DNA of 64,000 nucleotides from an uncultured Alphaproteobacteria bacterium (GTDB taxonomy: Bacteria > Pseudomonadota > Alphaproteobacteria > Rhizobiales > Xanthobacteraceae): the NCBI GenBank assembly GCA_963739385.1, contig CAVUAI010000013.1:30512-94511 (forward strand). Direction: 5' to 3'. Numbering within the stretch: position 1 is the first letter of the stretch; the number at the start of each line of letters is the position of its first letter. Below, in pieces: positions 205 to 48,768 of the stretch. The translations under genes were made by a program, and so were the position numbers. The notes below the pieces were generated by a model that made no database searches, was not told where the DNA came from, and saw nothing but the letters and a program-made list of their open reading frames with translations.

Positions 205-2202
205 TCAGGCGTCCGCGGGCTGCATGCCGAGCGCGCGGATTTTTTCGCGCACGGCCTCGTCGCGCAGCGCGGCAAGAAAAGCCTTGACCGCCGGCCGCGT
301 GCGACGGCTCTCGACCAAAAGAAAGTCGTAGTCCTCGGGCGCGATGGGAAGGAAACCCAGCCCGTATAGCCGGGCAACCAATTCGATGGCGATACCCCAG
401 TCGGCGCGGCCCTGCGCCACCGCGGCGGCGACCGCGTTATGCGAGCGCGGCTGGTTGCTGTAGCCCGCGGGCCGCGCTCCTTTGAGCAGCTGGTCGATCA
501 GCACCCGGGTCCCGGCGCCGGCATTGCGGTTGACCATGAGGCAGCGGGGATCCGCGAGCGCCTTTGCAATCGCCTCGGCCGCGCTGCCTCCGGCAAAGCG
601 GCGGTCGTCGGGGCGGTACACGAACCCCTGCATGCGCTGCCAGCCCTTCACCAGCGCGAGCCCGGGGCGCAGCAGATGCGCGTTGTAGACGCCGCTGGCG
701 GGATCGACGAGGTGCACCGGAGCGAGATCGCATTCGCCGCGCTCGGCCGCCGTCACGCCGCCCATGCTGCCGACCGCAATGGTGCGGGTGGCGAACGCCT
801 GTTCCGCCAAGGCGCCGAGCACCGCGTCGAGCGCGATGCAGTGGCTGCCCATGACCACAAGATCGGGCAGCGCCGCACTCTCACCGATCAAGGTCACGCG
901 CGCGCGGCTGCCGGCGTCGAGCGCGCCCGCGAGCGCCTCGATCTCGAGAAAGCCGTCGGCCTGGGAGAAGCTCGTCACCGCGCCGGAGCCCTTGGCGATC
1001 GGAAATGCCACTGGGCCCTCGTCGCCGGCCACCAGGGCCACCAGCGCGAATTCCTTGCGCCCGAGTTCGGAGGCGATGCGCACCGGGACATCGGCCTCGA
1101 TGCTGCGCGCGGCTTCCGGCGGCAGGCCGGCGCGGGCGCGGATCACCGGCGCGACGAAGGCATGGAAGGTGAAGATCGCGGAGGTGGGAAATCCTGGCAG
1201 CACCACAAGCGGCTTGCCGTCGACCACGGCAAGGCAAAGCGGCTTGCCCGGCTTGAGCGCGACGCCGTGCACCAGAATGTCACCGAGCTTCGAGACGATG
1301 CGGTGGGACAGATCGCCCGCGCCCTTGGAGGTGCCGCCGGAGAGCACCACCATGTCGCAGGCGGCGAGCGCCGCGCGCATCGCCGGCTCAAGCGCCGCTT
1401 CATCGTCTGCAAACGCGCCAAACGGGACCGGCTCGCCGCCCGCTTCCGCCACCGCGGCGGCGATGATCGCCCCGTTGCTGTCGTAGACCCGCGCCGGGGC
1501 GAGCGTGCCCCCCGGCGCCACCAGCTCATCGCCGGTGGAGAGCACGGCCACTTTGGGCCGCCGCACCACCTCGACTGCGGCGATGCCGCAGGCCGCCAGC
1601 ATGCCGATCTCGCGCGACGAGATGCGGGTGTTCCGCCGCAGCACGACCTCGCCGCGCGCAATGTCGGAGCCGGCATAGGAGACGAACTGCCCGGGCGCGA
1701 CGGCGCGCCGCAGGTCGATCGCCGGCGCGCCGGCGTCGTCGACGAGCTCGGTGTGCTCGATCATGACCACGGCGTCGGCGCCGCGCGGCACCACGCCACC
1801 GGTCGCGATGGTGGTGGCGGAGCCCGCGCTGACTTCGATCGCCGGGGCGTGCCCGCACACGATCACTTCGCCGTTGAGCGTAAAGCGGCGCGGCGCGGTA
1901 TCGCTCGCGCCCGTCGTGTCGGTGGAGCGCACCGCAAAGCCATCGACATTGGCGCGATCGAACGGCGGTACATCGATCGGCGCGGTGACATCACGCGCCA
2001 GCACGCGGCCGAGCGATGCGGCAAGGTCGACGGTCTCGGCCGGCAGCGGCGCGAGCTCGATGCGGCGGGTGAAGCGCGCGTGCGCCTCCTCGGCGGAGAC
2101 CACCTCGAGGAATTGCTCCTGCCGCGCAGCACGGCGTATGGCAGCGATGAGATCGGATGCGTGATCGCGCGCGGCCGATGCGGGTTCGAAACGGGCAGTC
2201 AT
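205..2202 (-). CDS. moeA: Molybdopterin molybdenumtransferase (MoeA) fused to a C-terminal periplasmic-binding-protein-like (PBP_like) domain, 665 aa
   Basis: From MTARFEP (ATG 2200-2202) the protein has MoeA hallmarks (PPFDRANVDGFAVRS, GDELV, LSGGTSKGAGD, PGKP, LPGFPTSA). A tail of about 230 aa follows (LPDLVVMGSHCIALD...NRNAGAGTRVL...DWGIAIE) typical of the PBP-like domain seen on MoeA fusions. The 901-aa track ORF upstream of 2202 is Arg/Gly-rich junk that overlaps the previous gene. Confidence 0.8.
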   Translation of the reverse strand: MTARFEPASAARDHASDLIAAIRRAARQEQFLEVVSAEEAHARFTRRIELAPLPAETVDLAASLGRVLARDVTAPIDVPPFDRANVDGFAVRSTDTTGASDTAPRRFTLNGEVIVCGHAPAIEVSAGSATTIATGGVVPRGADAVVMIEHTELVDDAGAPAIDLRRAVAPGQFVSYAGSDIARGEVVLRRNTRISSREIGMLAACGIAAVEVVRRPKVAVLSTGDELVAPGGTLAPARVYDSNGAIIAAAVAEAGGEPVPFGAFADDEAALEPAMRAALAACDMVVLSGGTSKGAGDLSHRIVSKLGDILVHGVALKPGKPLCLAVVDGKPLVVLPGFPTSAIFTFHAFVAPVIRARAGLPPEAARSIEADVPVRIASELGRKEFALVALVAGDEGPVAFPIAKGSGAVTSFSQADGFLEIEALAGALDAGSRARVTLIGESAALPDLVVMGSHCIALDAVLGALAEQAFATRTIAVGSMGGVTAAERGECDLAPVHLVDPASGVYNAHLLRPGLALVKGWQRMQGFVYRPDDRRFAGGSAAEAIAKALADPRCLMVNRNAGAGTRVLIDQLLKGARPAGYSNQPRSHNAVAAAVAQGRADWGIAIELVARLYGLGFLPIAPEDYDFLLVESRRTRPAVKAFLAALRDEAVREKIRALGMQPADA

Positions 2203-3323
2203 GGCCAGGGTCTTATCACGACCTCGCTGTGCGCCGGATAGCCCTCGCTTTCGGGCTTGATCAAAATCCATCCATCGGTCTGCGCCAGCGCGGAGAGCGG
2301 TACATAGCCCGAGGCTATGGGCGTGGCGGAGGCGCCATCGCTTCGCACCGGCACGAGCTCGGCGAGGCCAACCATGGACGTCACCTTGTGCGTGAGGACA
2401 GCCCGGCGCGTCCGCAATTCCTCCGTGCCGCCCGCGAGCCGCGCGAGCATGACTTGACCCAGCACGTGCCAGGCCGCCAGCGCCGCATCGAGTCGCCCCG
2501 CCACGGCCAACACCGGGCGGGCGCCCAGGGTTCCGAATGCCGTCGTCTCTGCGGGCAACAGCGCAACCCCGTGCACGTGCACCTGGCCCAGCGATGCGAG
2601 TGTACGCACCGTGGCGTCGCTGCCGCCGGTACCGGTCCCGCCCACGACAACGACCGCATCTGCCTCCGCTGATGCGTCTGCGAGCTCGCTCGAGGCGCTC
2701 ATGACGGGATCTCCGCCCCTGTGTTCGACCGCATCGGCGATGCATGCGACCGCGGCATCGATCACGGCGTCCCGGCCCGGCCGGGCGCGCACGATACGCA
2801 CGCGCGGCACGCGAATGCGCACCTCGCCGACCCCGATCGCCCCCAGCAGCGCGACCGCCACGGCGTCGAGGCGCCGACCCGCGCGCAGCAGCGTCGCGCC
2901 CGCGGCACAATCGGCGCCCGCGGGTAGCACGCCATCGCCGGGGCCGACCGTGGCCAGCGCGTAAGGCATGCCGGCGCGGATCATCATCGCATCGACGGGC
3001 GCGACTGCGTCGGCATCGGGCGGAAGCGGCTCCCCAACCCCGATGCGCATGGCGGTGGAGATGGGCGCCGGCGCATAGGCGCCGGCGTCGCTGGTCAACT
3101 CCGACCGCACAGCCCAGCCGTCGCGCAGGGCGCGCGCTACCGCCGGCACCGGAGTTTCGATGACGATGTCGTCCGCCAGGACGCGGCCAGTCGCGGCGTT
3201 GCGGTCGCTCGCGCGCGCCGCCACCGGCTTGACCAGCTCATCGATGCGGGCGAGCACCTCCGCGAGCGGCGTCAGCCGCGCGATTCGCTGCTCTGTGTCG
3301 GACTCCACGGCCATGGCTCGCAT
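2199..3323 (-). CDS. Second MoeA-family (molybdopterin-binding) protein, about 374 aa
   Basis: From MRAMAVESDTEQRIARLTPLAEVLARIDE the fold-level pattern matches MoeA (RDGWAVRS, VVVVGGTGTGGSD MoCF-type motif). Its TGA (2199-2201) overlaps the ATG of the next gene (ATGA), indicating translational coupling. The start could be 3323 or 3314. Confidence 0.7.
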   Translation of the reverse strand: MRAMAVESDTEQRIARLTPLAEVLARIDELVKPVAARASDRNAATGRVLADDIVIETPVPAVARALRDGWAVRSELTSDAGAYAPAPISTAMRIGVGEPLPPDADAVAPVDAMMIRAGMPYALATVGPGDGVLPAGADCAAGATLLRAGRRLDAVAVALLGAIGVGEVRIRVPRVRIVRARPGRDAVIDAAVACIADAVEHRGGDPVMSASSELADASAEADAVVVVGGTGTGGSDATVRTLASLGQVHVHGVALLPAETTAFGTLGARPVLAVAGRLDAALAAWHVLGQVMLARLAGGTEELRTRRAVLTHKVTSMVGLAELVPVRSDGASATPIASGYVPLSALAQTDGWILIKPESEGYPAHSEVVIRPWP

Positions 3324-42580: not shown

Positions 42581-43357
42581 ATGTCTCGCATTCGCAGGAA
42601 TCCACCGGGGGTCGATTCCAGGCTCCTGATCAAGGATGCGGCGAAGCTGATGCCGGAACCGACCCGGCGCCTGTTCCTGCGCGGCGGCGCCAGTCTCGGC
42701 GCGCTCGCCTTCCTCGCGGGCTGCGACATCGTCGACGGTCCGTCGGCGGAGCACGCTTTGACCAAGATCTCGTATTTCAACGACGGCGTGCAGGCGTGGC
42801 TGTTCAACCCCAACCGGCTCGCGCCGACCTATCCGGAAAGCGCGGTGACGCGTCCCTTCCCTTTCAACGGCTATTACCCCGAGGACGAGGCGCCCGAGGT
42901 CGACAAGGACGACTACAAGTTCGAGGTCGGCGGCATGGTCGACGACAAGAAATCGTGGACGCTCGATGAGCTCTACGCGCTGCCGCAGGAAACCCAGATC
43001 ACCCGCCATATCTGCGTGGAGGGCTGGAGCGCGATCGGCAAGTGGACCGGCACGCCGCTGCGCGAATTCCTGCGCCGCGTCGGCGCCGATACGCGGGCGA
43101 AATACGTCTGGTTCCGCTGCGCCGAGGGCTATTCCACCTCGATCGACATGCCGACGGCGCTGCACCCGCAGACCCAGATGACCTTCCAGTTCGACGGCGC
43201 GATCCTGCCGCGCAAGTACGGCTTCCCGATGAAGGTGCGCATCCCGACCAAGCTCGGCTTCAAGAATCCCAAATACGTGATGGAGATGGCCGTGACCGAC
43301 AAGTATCTCGGGGGCTACTGGGAGGACCAGGGATACAACTGGTTCAGCGGGAGTTGA
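42581..43357 (+). CDS. Molybdopterin-dependent oxidoreductase (MsrP/YedY-like, sulfite-oxidase fold) with Tat leader
   Basis: ATG 42581 follows AGGAGAG. The Tat leader is TRRLFLRGGASLGALAFLAGC. CVEGWS, KYGFPMKVRIP and KLGFKNPKYV are typical of the oxidoreductase molybdopterin-binding domain. Confidence 0.8.
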   Translation: MSRIRRNPPGVDSRLLIKDAAKLMPEPTRRLFLRGGASLGALAFLAGCDIVDGPSAEHALTKISYFNDGVQAWLFNPNRLAPTYPESAVTRPFPFNGYYPEDEAPEVDKDDYKFEVGGMVDDKKSWTLDELYALPQETQITRHICVEGWSAIGKWTGTPLREFLRRVGADTRAKYVWFRCAEGYSTSIDMPTALHPQTQMTFQFDGAILPRKYGFPMKVRIPTKLGFKNPKYVMEMAVTDKYLGGYWEDQGYNWFSGS

Positions 43358-43750
43358 GTACTACAAACTTGCCAAGCAATATTCATGAATGTGGTTCAAA
43401 CACATCATGGATGACACTAGACAGGGATCAGATTATCAATAGCGACTATGGCAACAGGCTGGCAACGAGCGTGCGGAGACGCAAGGTAGAAACAGCACGA
43501 CGTTCGAGTCGAGCCTAGCGCAGTGCCGCCACTCTAGCGCCGCCTCTTGTCGGGAACCGCACCCCGTCCGCATGAAGGACAAGGCGTGACCAAACCGGCC
43601 TGCCACGCGCGCTCGAACTGCTCGCCGCCAAAAGATCGCAGCTCAGCATCGCGCGGAACATAGCGATCCGCTATCGCACGATTATGTCGGCAGTCGACTG
43701 CGGCCAGCCATCCGTGGGCGCCGTTGGCTCACAGCACAACAAATAGTCTG

Positions 43751-43779
43751 CTGACACGTAGCATTAAATGATGTATTCT
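43751..43779 (+). promoter_or_regulatory. Putative sigma70-type promoter for the islet operon
   Basis: CTGACA (43751-56), 17 nt, TATTCT (43774-79), about 29 nt upstream of ATG 43808 in an AT-rich stretch. This is a pattern match only. Confidence 0.3.
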
Positions 43780-43807
43780 ATCTAGGGTTGTTGAGAGTAT
43801 TCGGACT

Positions 43808-44365
43808 ATGCACAGACATTTCTGGCCCGTTGTCGCACTCGTCCTCATTTGTCCCATCCTTTGCCGCGGCGCCGAACCTTCGTTTTCGGAAGCCGTAGGG
43901 CTGTTAAGCCAGGAGCGAAGCTACGCCGAATCGGGCGCGGCATTGGTTAAGCAGTACGCGCCGGGCGACATAGAAGCCCGGCGGCTCTATGCGGACGCCA
44001 AGGGCGCCTTTGACGGCTTGATCGAGCAGCTGCTGGCGGACCTCGCGCAAAACAACGATCCGGAACTCTCCGCGGCATTTCGCGAGCGGATCGACGCCGC
44101 GGCGATGAAGCGCGTTGCGTTCAGTAAGCGCGCAGACGAGGTCCTGAAAGCCAATGTGCCAGAGGGGGCCAAGAACGCCATTCTGGTTGCGATTGCAGAA
44201 TCGTTAGCAAAAACTCCCGTCGAGATAGTGAAAGAGCTGTTCGGGGGCGGAATGACCATCTGGAAAGAATGGCGGGGTGTTAGCACCGAACGCCGCAAGC
44301 AGATAACCACGCGGATTGAGGCACAGCGATGGAAACCTTTTGCCGAGATCCCTCCCGCGCTTTGA
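43808..44365 (+). CDS. Exported all-helical protein of unknown function (185 aa), first gene of the islet operon
   Basis: The signal peptide is MHRHFWPVVALVLICPILCRGA|EP. The mature part is Ala/Glu/Lys/Arg-rich with heptad-like helices, has no Cys, and shows no motif I recognise. Its 3-prime end overlaps the next gene by 37 nt. Confidence 0.7.
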   Translation: MHRHFWPVVALVLICPILCRGAEPSFSEAVGLLSQERSYAESGAALVKQYAPGDIEARRLYADAKGAFDGLIEQLLADLAQNNDPELSAAFRERIDAAAMKRVAFSKRADEVLKANVPEGAKNAILVAIAESLAKTPVEIVKELFGGGMTIWKEWRGVSTERRKQITTRIEAQRWKPFAEIPPAL

Positions 44366-47277
44366 ACGCGACCAGGATTGTTGCCCTGCTAATCGGGCTG
44401 CTTTTGCCCGCAGAAGTCCTCCGCGCGCAGGAAGTCGACAAGGACGGCCTCTACAGCCAGCCGTTTTTGGTCCTTGACCCTGAGATGCACGCCGACGCTA
44501 TCACGGCCACGGCTGTGGACGCAGGAGGCCGCTATATCGTAACCGGCTCATACGATAAGACGGTGCGCGTCTGGTCGGGCAACGATGGACGTCTCTTGCG
44601 CACCATCCGGATGCCGAGCGGTCCGGAGTACGCAGGCCAAGTTAATACGGTCGCGTTATCGCCTGATGGCAATACGATTGCAGCTGCCGGCGGGAGCCCG
44701 CACATCTTTCTATTTGACCGCGCCACGGGACGTCAAGTCTTGCGCATGGGACTCCCAACAAACGACTCCATCATTAATAAGCTGGCATTATCGCACGATG
44801 GCCGCAGGATTGCCGCGGGTATCCAAAATCCATTTAGCCTCCGTCTGTTTGACCTGGATGGCCCGAATGAAATTGCCTTCGATGACGAATATAAGGAGTC
44901 AATATACGGGATCTCCTTCGACGCCGCCGGGCGCATTGCGACCGCATCTGAAGACCACAAACTTCGGCTTTATGACCGTCATCTTAAGCTAATACGCAGC
45001 GCCCGTGCGCCGGGTCGCCCTCCGCTGCAGCCGTTCCAAATTGCCTTCTCGCCCGACGGCAAACGCCTCGCTGTTGGATATGGTCCCGAAACGTCCACAC
45101 CGCGTGTGGATGTTGTGGACGGCCGTACCCTAGCCGCGATTTTTGTGCCGCCCATGAAAGGTTACAGCAGCGGGCGGTTAACTCGCATTGCGTGGTCCAA
45201 GGATGGCAGCATCCTCTATGCCGGCGGAACTACTACGTCGCGGGACGGTGTCAGCAAGCTAGTTTTCGCGTGGAAAAACGGTGGTCGCGGTCCCGCTCAG
45301 GTTTTTCCAGCGGGATCAGAAACCATTTCAGAGATTCGGGAACTCTCCGGAGGCCGCATCGTCGTTGCGTCTATGCGTCCTAGCCTGTCCATTTTTGATC
45401 GGGGAGGCACGGTCCTACGGCAAATCGACCCGACGACTGGGGACTTCCGACAACAAGCAAAGGCCTTGAAAGTCAGTCCAGACGGAAACACAGTCCTGTT
45501 TAATTTCGCGGGTGCAGACGACAAGTCAATAGCTGCTTTCGACATAAGCAGGCGAGCACTTGACATCGCTCCAAACCCGCGTTCGGGGCTCGTGGCTCCC
45601 CGCATTGAGGGACTTCCAATCACTGACTGGGAGAATAAAACAAACCCAAAACTTGGAGGGCGCCCTCTCACAGATGATAATTTTACCTCCCGCAGCTTGG
45701 CCATTGCGCGTGACGCTAGCAGTTTCTGGCTCGCGAGGGATTGGGATCTTCGCCACCTCGACGCCGACGGCAATTTGATCCGGCAAATCAATGCCGTAAC
45801 CATTCCGTGGGCCGTGAACCTCGCGGCCGACGATCGGTTGGTGATCGCAGCGCATGGTGACGGCACGATCCGCTGGTATCGGAGCGCAGATGGCGTGGAA
45901 ATCCTGACGTTTTATCCTCACGCAGACCGCAAGCGATGGGTTGCGTGGACACCCCTCGGCCATTACGCGGCCTCGCCAGGAGCCGAGGATTTTATCCAAT
46001 GGCAGGTTAACCGCGGCCTCGATCAGGAACCTATTACATATTCTGCGTCGCGATTTCGCGATCAGTTCTACCGGCCGGACGTGATCGAGCGCGTGCTCGA
46101 AACGCTCGATCCTAAGGCGGCGCTCGAGGCGGCTGACGCCGCCGCGGGTCGCACACGCAGTATTGTCAAGTCAATCACCGAATACACCCCACCTCGTGTC
46201 GCCATTGTCGATCCAGCGGACGCAACATTCGTCCAACGGCCGGAACTCGTTGTGGCATATACGATTGAGGACCGTCCAGGCACTGCGATTAGACGGATCA
46301 GATTAATGCTCGATGGAAGCGTAGTCGCGGAAGAAAAAAATCGGACGGTTGCCCAAGATGGCCGGATGGCGGGTGAGTTCAAGGTTTCGCTTCAAAGCGA
46401 TCAATCTTTAGTAACATTGATATTGCTCGCCGAGAATGAACATGGCACCAGCGATCCGTCCAGTGTACGCCTCCGCCGCAATGTTACCACTGATGACCAC
46501 AAACCGACGCTCTATGTACTTGCGGTTGGCGTCGGGGAGTTCAAAAACCATCCACACCTCAAGCTCAATTTTGCCCACGCTGACGCGAACGCCTTTGTGG
46601 AGCGCGTTGTGAGACAGGAACATGGGCTTTACAGTCGGGTTTTGGCACAAACCCTAGTGAACGAGCAGGCGACGGCAGAGGCAATTCTGAAGGGCCTCGA
46701 ATGGTTGGAGCGAAGTATGAGCTCCCGTGACGTGGCGGCTGTGTTCTTCTCTAGTCATGGGGCGAATGACACAAACCGACAGTTCTACCTGCTGCCACAT
46801 GACGTGAACGTTCTAGACGAGATTACCCTCCGCCGCAGCGCCCTCAAATATGTAGACCTACGTGACACTCTGGTACGCCTCGCAGAACGAGGCAAAACTT
46901 TGCTCTTCCTCGATGCGTGCTATTCCGGCAACGTTCTCCCCGGTGCAAAACAAGTAGCGCCACCGGACATAGATATGGTGGCGGCTGATCTGGCGAGCAC
47001 CGAGGGCGGCGTGGTCGTCTTCAGCTCTTCTACAGGTAAACAGTTTTCAATGGAGTATCCGGAACTTGGCCACGGGGCATTCACGGCGGCACTCCTGGAG
47101 GCTTTCGACGGCAAGTCCGACCGGCCCCCACCCTGGCTCCGTGTCAGTGACCTTGAAATCTGGCTCACAACGCGTGTCAAGGAATTGACGAAGGGCGCGC
47201 AGACACCGCGGACAACAGTCCCCGGCGAGCGCTTCATTAACCCGCGCGTTTTCATGATGCAGCACCAGACACGCTGA
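44329..47277 (+). CDS. Exported WD40/beta-propeller array, Ig-like module and C-terminal caspase-like (peptidase C14) protease, 982 aa
   Basis: ATG 44329 lies 8 nt after TGAGG. The leader is TRIVALLIGLLLPAEVLRA|QE. WD40-type blades include GGRYIVTGSYDKTVRVWS, ALSPDGNTIAAAG, SHDGRRIAAG, GRIATASEDHKLRLYD, FSPDGKRLAVG, VSPDGNTVLF and AAHGDGTIRWYR. The caspase p20-like core is TLYVLAVGVGEF...DVAAVFFSSHG (His810, 46756-58) ...TLLFLDACYSG (Cys864, 46918-20). Confidence 0.85.
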   Translation: METFCRDPSRALNATRIVALLIGLLLPAEVLRAQEVDKDGLYSQPFLVLDPEMHADAITATAVDAGGRYIVTGSYDKTVRVWSGNDGRLLRTIRMPSGPEYAGQVNTVALSPDGNTIAAAGGSPHIFLFDRATGRQVLRMGLPTNDSIINKLALSHDGRRIAAGIQNPFSLRLFDLDGPNEIAFDDEYKESIYGISFDAAGRIATASEDHKLRLYDRHLKLIRSARAPGRPPLQPFQIAFSPDGKRLAVGYGPETSTPRVDVVDGRTLAAIFVPPMKGYSSGRLTRIAWSKDGSILYAGGTTTSRDGVSKLVFAWKNGGRGPAQVFPAGSETISEIRELSGGRIVVASMRPSLSIFDRGGTVLRQIDPTTGDFRQQAKALKVSPDGNTVLFNFAGADDKSIAAFDISRRALDIAPNPRSGLVAPRIEGLPITDWENKTNPKLGGRPLTDDNFTSRSLAIARDASSFWLARDWDLRHLDADGNLIRQINAVTIPWAVNLAADDRLVIAAHGDGTIRWYRSADGVEILTFYPHADRKRWVAWTPLGHYAASPGAEDFIQWQVNRGLDQEPITYSASRFRDQFYRPDVIERVLETLDPKAALEAADAAAGRTRSIVKSITEYTPPRVAIVDPADATFVQRPELVVAYTIEDRPGTAIRRIRLMLDGSVVAEEKNRTVAQDGRMAGEFKVSLQSDQSLVTLILLAENEHGTSDPSSVRLRRNVTTDDHKPTLYVLAVGVGEFKNHPHLKLNFAHADANAFVERVVRQEHGLYSRVLAQTLVNEQATAEAILKGLEWLERSMSSRDVAAVFFSSHGANDTNRQFYLLPHDVNVLDEITLRRSALKYVDLRDTLVRLAERGKTLLFLDACYSGNVLPGAKQVAPPDIDMVAADLASTEGGVVVFSSSTGKQFSMEYPELGHGAFTAALLEAFDGKSDRPPPWLRVSDLEIWLTTRVKELTKGAQTPRTTVPGERFINPRVFMMQHQTR

Positions 47278-47409
47278 GGAGACCATGAAGCCAAAGTGCC
47301 TCGCACTGGGCCGCTTGCAAGCTGGCAGCGGGGTCGCCTGCCGCGCACCGATGTGCCGCCACCGATCCTGACTGTCTGGCAATAAAGCCGCGCTCGCTCT
47401 TGGACCGTA

Positions 47410-48768
47410 CTAGGTCGGCTTTGCGGGGATGCCGTCGTCGCTCATCCGTTGTTCCACTCTTTCTGTTAGATGTGCATGGGAGCGGGAGTTGAGGGGAGGA
47501 TAAGAATTTTCCGCCGCCGGCGATGGGACTTCGGTAATAAGCCGCGCGCCGCGATGGAACGTGATGTAGTCCCACAGCCAGGTGAACGCCACGATGAAGC
47601 GGTTCTTGAGCCCGATCAGGAAATAGATGTGGGCCACGCTCCAGAACAGCCATCCCACGAAACCCTTGAGCTGCAGGCGGCCGAACTTCACCACGGCGGC
47701 GCGCCGTCCGATGGTCGCGAGATCTCCGAGATGGCGATAGCGAAACGGCGGCAACGATCGCTTTGAGACGCGTGCGGCAATGAGCCGCCCGACATAGTGG
47801 CCCATCTGCTTGGCGGCCGGCGCGACCCCGGGAACCGGCTGCCCCTTCGGATCGCGGACGGCAGCAACGTCGCCGATCACGAACACGTCGGGATGGCCCG
47901 GAACCGACAGGTCCGGACCCACGATCACGCGCCCGGCGCGATCGGGCTCCACCCCGAGCCAGCGCGCGACCGGCGAGGCGACGACGCCCGCGGCCCAGAT
48001 GACGGTGCTGGCGTCGATGCGGCCGGGATCGAGATCGACGCCGCGCGCGTCCACGCTCGTGACACGGGTGGAGGTCCGCACGTCGACGCCCATGCGCGTG
48101 AGCGCGCGCCGGGCATAGTCGGACAGATCGTCAGGCAGCGTGGGCAATATGCGCGGACCTGCTTCGAGCAGGATGATGCGCGAACTGCGGGGGTCGATGC
48201 GCCGGAAGTCCTTGGCGAGCGTCTGGCGCGCGATCTCGGCGATGGCTCCGGCCATTTCCACGCCGGTGGCGCCGCCACCCACGATAACGAAGGTGAGCAG
48301 GCGCTCACGCTCGGCCTGGTCGCGGGCAAGCTCGGCATGCTCGAACGCCAGCAGGATGCTGCGGCGGATGCGGGTGCCGTCCTCGATGCGCTTAAGTCCG
48401 GGTGCGAACTCAGCCCAGGCGTCATGTCCGAAATAGGAGTGCGTCGCTCCGGTGGCGATCACGAGATAATCGTAGGAGATCGGACCGGCACCGGTCAGAA
48501 CGCGCCGGCCCTCGGCGTCGACGCCGACGACCTCCGCCATCAGGACCGTGGCGTTCGACTGCCCGCGCAGGATGTGCCGGATCGGCCAGGCGATCTCGGC
48601 CGGCGAGAGCGCGGCGGTCGCGACCTGGTAGAGCAGCGGCTGAAAGCAATGATGGTTCTGGCGATCGATCACGGTGACGTCGACGGCGGCGCGGGCCAGC
48701 GCCCTCGTGGCTTCAAGCCCGCCGAAGCCGGCACCGACGATCACGACGTTGGGACGCTTCTGTGACAT
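47410..48768 (-). CDS. ndh: Type II NADH dehydrogenase (NDH-2)
   Basis: Starts at [19 protein letters not shown] (ATG 48766-68). It has a second dinucleotide motif ([15 protein letters not shown]) and the motif GDVA. 452 aa. Confidence 0.9.

Follow-up and report, generated by a model that had tools for sequence, protein, structure and literature searches.

The small open reading frame that precedes a WD40-Ig-caspase gene in the window (the whole stretch of 64,000 nucleotides analysed here) encodes a protein that, judging from gene order, co-phylogeny and matched export signals, is very probably the dedicated partner of a clade of exported WD40-Ig-caspases. This partner is probably a substrate or a regulator of the caspase. 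Bacterial WD40-caspases are common, yet hardly any function has been assigned to those that are exported; for these, there is now a defined partner family of wide distribution (711 clusters at 50% identity) and a concrete hypothesis, by which one conserved loop would be cleaved or bound. The coordinates of the features discussed are collected in Table 1.

Table 1. Features of the partner-caspase cassette (nucleotide positions are those of the window; protein positions are residue numbers)
Feature	Position	Strand	Description
Low-GC inserted islet	43358..47501	.	4.1 kb, two-gene cassette only; GC ~0.57 against ~0.66 in the flanks
Sigma-70-like promoter match	43751..43779	+	CTGACA-17-TATTCT, 5' of the partner gene
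Partner gene	43808-44365	+	ATG-started ORF, 185 aa, predicted exported helical protein
Signal peptide of the partner	43808..43873	+	Residues 1-22, predicted cleavage between RGA and EP
G120-A121-K122 codons	44165..44173	+	G-x-K/R motif in the helix 3-4 loop; candidate protease recognition site
Shine-Dalgarno-like TGAGG	44317-44321	+	Within the partner gene, 7 nt 5' of the caspase ATG
WD40-Ig-caspase gene	44329..47277	+	982 aa; signal peptide ~1-33
Caspase protein domains			WD40 blades ~45-560; Ig-like ~620-720; Peptidase_C14 730-961
Caspase catalytic residues	46756-46758; 46918-46920	+	His810; Cys864

The preliminary description of this DNA had proposed an ORF of 185 residues with a clear signal peptide and a Cys-free mature part rich in A/E/K/R/L, all of which is borne out. 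The frame opens with ATG, and its N-terminus (MHRHFWPVVALVLICPILCRGA, followed by EP) reaches a best 10-residue Kyte-Doolittle mean of 3.19, a strong hydrophobic core; signal peptides were called from this hydrophobic-core score. The mature protein comprises 163 residues (17.9 kDa, pI 5.7), 50% of which are A/E/K/R/L and none Cys. The details noted at the junction of the two genes likewise stand: a 37-nt overlap with the caspase ORF, the TGAGG inside the first gene, and an alternative TTG start at 44362 that would form a TTGA overlap with the partner stop (44363-44365). So does the low GC common to both genes, which is 0.595 for the partner gene (GC3 0.68) and 0.571 for the caspase gene (GC3 0.61); the GC3 of the flanking genes is 0.80-0.93, and both cassette genes are compositionally foreign. 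The promoter match upstream belongs to a class of sites found at chance level (2 sigma-70-like sites against 1.8 expected in shuffles). The window partner lacks the Tat motif (S/T-R-R-x-F-L-K), having H-R-H-F instead, and Tat export as a general feature of the family was dropped, an RR pair being found in only ~30% of representatives and RRxFL in few. RRxFL-type, Tat-like N-termini do occur in a subset of homologues (P0068-P0072, P0075, P0078, P0090 and P0094). On the reading favoured below, the window partner would be exported by Sec.

A word-indexed search returns 73 homologues of the partner, down to 31% identity, all of them unnamed or annotated as 'hypothetical'. Profile search against 1.84 billion representatives extends the family to the 711 clusters at E<=1e-3, 362 being retained at E<=1e-10, and nearly all the matches are stand-alone proteins of 150-220 residues. 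The first inspection of the sequence had recognised no motif in the protein, and Pfam, NCBIfam and PADLOC indeed report no match for it and nothing consistent across 100 diverse members. The AF2 model, based on a 67-sequence alignment, has a pLDDT of 88.9 (below 50 at residues 1-20) and a pTM of 0.82, and exhibits six helices (residues 26-50, 55-80, 89-116, 124-133, 137-155 and 160-171) and no strands, followed by a conserved non-helical C-terminal tail. E41, Y61, A64 and W175 are near-invariant across the broad family, while close relatives share a conserved face of helix 2 (Y61, K65, D69, E73/Q74) as well as P85, S88, R102, F105 and W152. Because the homologues keep these columns and their length and the fold is predicted with confidence, the small ORF can be taken as a genuine gene. 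That it might be a chance ORF lying upstream of the caspase gene would agree with its lack of annotation, but hundreds of homologues with preserved columns and length, and the confident AF2 fold, reduce the likelihood of this to almost nothing, and conservation rules it out.

The fold has no evident counterpart among the structures searched. Foldseek reports no match below E=0.1 against the PDB and BFVD (viral proteins), and the profile search against PDB sequences nothing below E=0.3. The top Foldseek match is the pectin methylesterase inhibitor 1x8z, which is not significant (E=0.38, TM 0.36-0.40), and the TIGR01614 PME_inhib model is matched by one of 100 family members (E=4e-4); with these values and no Cys in its mature part, the partner does not fall into the PMEI/invertase-inhibitor family (TIGR01614, PF04043). 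Nor does it belong to the death folds, no CARD, DD or PYD entry being present in the top 50 PDB matches; its helices of 20-30 residues and its domain of ~160 residues differ from the short-helix death-fold bundle of ~90 residues. The family therefore appears to be large, not described in databases and without a structural relative found. A hydrophobic signal region is present in 87 of the 100 family representatives and missing from about ten; several representatives have lipoboxes. The family is rare in genome collections and its sources are mainly soil metagenomes and MAGs: apart from the window's own genome, it is carried by none of 300 genomes of the host's family and by none of 400 of its phylum. 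The host genome possesses a single copy.

The association with WD40-caspases is evident when the loci are examined from the side of the partner. A WD40-caspase gene is adjacent in 24 of the 26 close-family loci, which span several phyla and either gene order. It adjoins the partner in all five metagenome contexts and in 19 of the 21 loci from species-representative genomes, the two exceptions being an orphan copy beside PEP carboxylase (L011) and a locus that ends at a contig edge (L023). Among the hosts are members of several alphaproteobacterial families, along with Candidatus Entotheonella, a Terriglobia MAG and Desulfobacula. The caspase gene comes first in six loci (L006, L012, L013, L019, L021 and L022). 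Two loci (L005 and L010) have the same 37-nt overlap as the window, others have ATGA (4 nt) overlaps or gaps of 2-30 nt, and L006, in which the order is reversed, has an overlap of 26 nt. From the overlap we infer that the translation of the two genes is linked; relatives keep an overlap or a short gap. In seven loci the neighbours are metabolic or housekeeping genes, and no defence-island context was seen there.

A distant subfamily with lipoprotein signals (~30% identity) retains part of this arrangement. In L051, a locus of 42% GC, the gene of a signal-peptide-WD40-Big_7-C14 protein starts 14 nt downstream of the partner gene, and in L050 an inserted ORF separates the partner gene from a downstream WD40 gene. 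In L053, a lipoprotein-type partner is located directly downstream of a CHAT protease (positions 1-555 and 652-1227; E=2.9e-39), and the same holds for P0207; judging from these gene contexts, the partner association extends beyond Peptidase C14 to CHAT, another caspase-like family. No recognisable protease is found near the members of this subfamily in L052, L054/L055 and L056. The divergent member in L055 (5893-6498) has an N-terminal transmembrane anchor and lies beside a Ser/Thr kinase-FGE-sulfatase protein and an ECF-type sigma factor. One apparent Rosetta-stone fusion, P0152 (L060 1999-3810, Rhodospirillales MAG), is a protein of 603 residues in which most of the partner domain is joined to a linker, Ig and caspase part, without the WD40 region. 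It was set aside as probably a deletion relic, being a singleton with a degenerate N-terminus and no WD40 gene nearby. In two Nanopore-derived MAGs (L017 5842-8106 and L025), the partner and the caspase are in one frame or frameshifted, probably through sequencing errors; AF2 of the L017 read-through ORF (partner, caspase signal peptide and first propeller) returns a pTM of 0.46 with a poorly modelled propeller.

Seen from the caspase, the linkage is confined to a part of the tree. Five genomes of the host's family encode full-length WD40-caspases at 33-40% identity, the partner being found in 0 of the 300 family genomes, and in a class-level sample nine further genomes match the caspase strongly, of which one (G356) has the partner beside it. 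Among three named database homologues of the caspase, that of Candidatus Thiosymbion has a partner gene 1.4 kb downstream, while a Nitrospira genome and a Rhodospirillaceae contig have no partner within 3 kb. The former, Nitrospira sp. Kam-Ns4a, carries two WD40-caspase genes in tandem (L057 3001-8852), again with no partner within 3 kb. The caspase tree groups the partner-linked proteins in one clade (99/98 support), within which a single nested subclade lacks the partner, as do the outgroups; the partner label needs 2 changes on this tree against 7.8 for shuffled labels. Since a single nested loss and partnerless outgroups frame the linked clade, the partnership is old and specific to one clade, and not general to WD40-caspases. 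The preliminary description had regarded caspase homologues routinely found without the partner as an argument against a functional pair. Distant WD40-caspases (31-44% identity) are indeed usually without it, but within the partner-linked clade the association holds apart from the one nested loss. Some caspases of this partnerless nested subclade possess an N-terminal partial PG_binding_1 match (28.1, 22.9 and 22.3 bits, for a cut-off of 23). The idea that a PG-binding domain replaces the partner is weakened by Candidatus Thiosymbion, in which a caspase with PG_binding_1 is accompanied by a partner gene nearby.

The two genes also appear to have evolved together. Over 20 loci, the pairwise distances of the partners and of the caspases correlate with a Pearson and Mantel r of 0.94, a value as high being reached in none of 5000 permutations, from which it follows that the two genes are, as far as their phylogenies indicate, inherited and transferred as a unit. 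Signal peptides are called on both proteins in 17 loci and on neither in four (L001, L009, L024 and L028), two pairs being unassigned and none clearly discordant; the four pairs without signal peptides belong to at least two separate lineages on the caspase tree. It had been suggested at the outset that the two products are obligate companions in the same compartment and, on this ground, physical partners. The adjacency, the co-phylogeny and the matched signal peptides strongly support a dedicated partnership within one compartment, in which the two proteins may be in physical contact.

The caspase itself is readily assigned. Pfam reports WD40 repeats (E=5.5e-25) and a Peptidase_C14 domain (PF00656, E=8.2e-15) with an intact His-Cys dyad, which places it in Peptidase C14; the Ig-like (Big_7) stretch is weak. 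Among NCBIfam models, 'caspase, EACC1-associated type' scores best (73.6 bits, under the 140-bit cut-off), and PADLOC returns only weak matches for the caspase and none for the partner. Each of the 32 caspase relatives examined retains the xHG and D-x-C motifs. Arg/Lys specificity in metacaspases and orthocaspases is associated with an Asp at the second position ahead of the catalytic Cys, and since the window caspase has such an Asp, the same specificity is predicted for it. The host genome contains a second WD40-caspase-like gene on another contig (G000:C49:28955-31753, ~27% identity, an open frame of 1206 residues).

The partner offers a candidate target for such a protease in the loop that connects its helices 3 and 4, where confidence within the folded part is lowest in both AF2 models. 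A K or R occupies position 122 in 66 of the 67 close relatives and in 85 of the 100 broad-family members; for G120 the counts are 59 of 67 and 76 of 100, respectively. The residue that follows K/R122 is small (G/S/A) in the broad family, Pro in 46 of the 67 members of the window's clade, and Asn in the window. After the loop comes an apolar stretch of 9-14 residues with a mean hydropathy of about +1, as compared with -0.3 for the whole protein. Given the conserved G-x-K/R loop and the D-x-C motif of the caspases, this loop is a plausible recognition or cleavage site for the caspase.

What the partner does for the caspase can be read in several ways. The one that we favour, with a probability somewhat short of even, is that the partner would be a cleaved substrate or a latent effector of the caspase. 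The pair would be made together, through the overlap or short gap, and sent to the same compartment, where the WD40/Ig part of the caspase would recruit or sense and the D-x-C caspase would engage the flexible G-x-K/R loop between partner helices 3 and 4. A cut at this loop would separate helices 1-3 from the apolar C-terminal part and would thereby alter the activity of the partner, a logic that would be that of the bacterial protease-effector modules, placed in the periplasm. A more elaborate version is unlikely: in it, the exported sensor-caspase would detect an envelope signal (a phage part, a bacteriocin or wall damage) and cut the partner at G-x-K/R, and the apolar C-terminal fragment would act on the membrane from the periplasmic side. 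That the catalytic His and D-x-C are conserved in 32 of 32 relatives speaks for an active protease. Several observations point the other way. A Pro after the cut site disfavours cleavage by many proteases, and the Pro next to K122 in 46 of the 67 close relatives therefore counts against a cleaved substrate; so do the apolar stretch, perhaps just a buried short helix, the export of both proteins among housekeeping and metabolic neighbours, unlike the known cytoplasmic defence modules, and the many related WD40-caspases that do without a partner.

This same Pro in the close clade would suit an uncut bait loop, as expected if the helical protein were an inhibitor, a chaperone or a pro-domain in trans that binds the exported caspase and silences or folds it until a signal arrives. 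We regard this as possible, if somewhat unlikely. The partner gene usually precedes that of the caspase and is translationally coupled to it, as would suit a protein required in no smaller amount than the caspase; the two are co-inherited and have their compartment in common, and the catalytic dyad is always intact, so that the activity needs control; two weak hints lead to plant enzyme inhibitors (1x8z, E=0.38, TM 0.36-0.40, and TIGR01614 in 1/100 members). However, the gene order is reversed in six loci, many related WD40-caspases, including a nested subclade, lack the partner, neither the fold hint nor the family hint reaches significance, and the mature partner has no Cys, in contrast with the disulfide-stabilised PMEI-type inhibitors. 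A localisation adaptor or anchor, by which the partner would tether a soluble caspase at the membrane or the cell wall, seems quite improbable. A whole subfamily with lipoprotein signals, a variant with a transmembrane anchor and the gain of a partial PG_binding_1 by some caspases of the partnerless nested subclade would all fit it, but most members, including the window protein, are predicted to be soluble once the signal peptide is removed, four pairs without signal peptides are cytoplasmic, and the co-occurrence of PG_binding_1 and a nearby partner in Candidatus Thiosymbion means that one does not simply replace the other. It is equally doubtful that the small protein is a functionally independent passenger, one that has a periplasmic role unrelated to the caspase and shares no more than a transcript with it. 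The conservation of the pair in 24 of 26 loci, across phyla and in two gene orders, the Mantel r of 0.94 and the joint absence of signal peptides from both proteins speak against such independence, although the orphan copy in L011 beside PEP carboxylase and the divergent copies in L054/L055, beside the Ser/Thr kinase-FGE protein and the ECF sigma factor, would accord with it, and no motif links the partner to proteolysis.

The substrate or latent-effector reading has precedents. Small non-enzymatic proteins encoded beside caspase-like proteases have been described as latent effectors that are freed by site-specific cleavage, the proteases being fused to sensors or repeats including beta-transducin (WD40), and the effector and protease phylogenies being congruent (bioRxiv 10.1101/2025.11.14.688446). 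The effectors tested there were EACC1, Pepco, an MBL-fold hydrolase and an alpha/beta-hydrolase, and the modules compared comprise EACC1, Pepco/Trypco, MBL, alpha/beta-hydrolase, bacterial gasdermin, CATASP, CalpT and Csx30 (bioRxiv 10.1101/2025.11.14.688446). The window pair resembles these modules in that the small gene adjoins the protease gene across taxa (24 of 26 loci, with distant members beside WD40-Ig-C14 or CHAT), in the congruence of partner and protease (Mantel r=0.94; 2 label changes against 7.8 when shuffled) and in the fusion of the protease to a sensor, WD40 and Ig-like domains being N-terminal to Peptidase_C14. The likeness to the EACC1 modules extends to the caspase, whose best NCBIfam match is the EACC1-associated type. 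In contrast, the window partner matches none of the described effector families by sequence and, with its six helices, is all-alpha in the AF2 model, unlike EACC1, Pepco and gasdermin, which have beta structure, and unlike the other described effectors, which are enzymes. Regarding EACC1, no Pfam, NCBIfam or PADLOC match was obtained for the window partner or 100 relatives, in libraries that may lack an EACC1 model; EACC1 is a protein of ~12.8 kDa that contains beta strands and has an autoinhibitory fragment at its N-terminus, as compared with an all-alpha partner of 17.9 kDa. Pepco/Trypco and bacterial gasdermin, characterised by a beta-barrel or beta-sheet pore-forming fold, are likewise not recovered, the AF2 model containing six helices and no strands and no family match being reported. 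The known modules are moreover cytoplasmic and found in defence contexts, whereas both proteins have signal peptides in most of the loci and their neighbours are metabolic or housekeeping genes. On this analysis the pair is filed as one that would work like a protease-effector module without being a member of any named effector family. If this is true, the module logic extends to the periplasm.

The inhibitor or chaperone reading also has its precedents. Staphostatins are operon-encoded inhibitors of cysteine proteases that fold into cytoplasmic beta-barrels, and the lipase-specific foldase Lif is a periplasmic steric chaperone with a membrane-anchored helical scaffold. As in these systems, the window cassette combines, in an operon, a small or helical partner with an exported hydrolase whose activity or folding it might control there. 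Unlike them, the partner is neither a cytoplasmic beta-barrel nor, as Lif is, much larger and membrane-anchored, and no sequence or fold match to either was found. The plant pectin methylesterase and invertase inhibitors (1x8z, 1rj1; TIGR01614) are, like the partner, exported helical bundles. The PMEI-type family, however, relies on conserved disulfides and the mature partner has no Cys; a Foldseek E of 0.38, TM scores of at most 0.40 and one of 100 members matching the model set it further apart. Should the partner be an inhibitor, it would represent a new class of caspase-family regulator, and under either reading a mobile cassette of this small size can easily be reconstituted. In the available part of a survey of prokaryotic metacaspases, WD40 is reported as their commonest accessory domain (10.9%), N-terminal hydrophobic helices are suspected signal peptides, and about half of the genes are in operons (Asplund-Samuelsson et al. 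2012, PMC3501461). The partner family is not described in that part of the survey, and the best-known architecture given there, metacaspase-NACHT-WD40, differs from that of the window protein, which comprises a signal peptide, WD40, Ig and a C-terminal caspase (PMC3501461).

The cassette lies in a low-GC islet between msrP-like and ndh genes. These flanks are 9-100 bp apart in at least 13 same-genus genomes, five of which lose homology to the window at 43357/43358 and regain it at 47502-47531. With the flanks closed up and homology broken in this way, the cassette is an insertion of 4.1 kb that at least 13 genomes of the genus lack, and its comparison with them suggests a compact and horizontally mobile unit. 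The last ~30 codons of ndh (NDH-2, 47410-47501) are inside the islet. As same-genus homology begins only at 47502-47531, the insertion seems to have exchanged the native 3' end of ndh for a new C-terminal tail. The same msrP-ndh site contains other inserts of ~4.6, 2.1 and 1.8 kb in other genomes of the genus (G014, G118 and G1097), and the 43357/47502 junction may be a recurrent integration spot. Lastly, another genome of the genus (L067, G1092:C40) contains a truncated partner relic of 82 residues (1429-1677, minus strand), 77% identical over the first ~60 residues. It is located ~390 bp from a divergently oriented signal-peptide-caspase-TPR gene (2068-3177, plus strand), with no WD40-caspase present.
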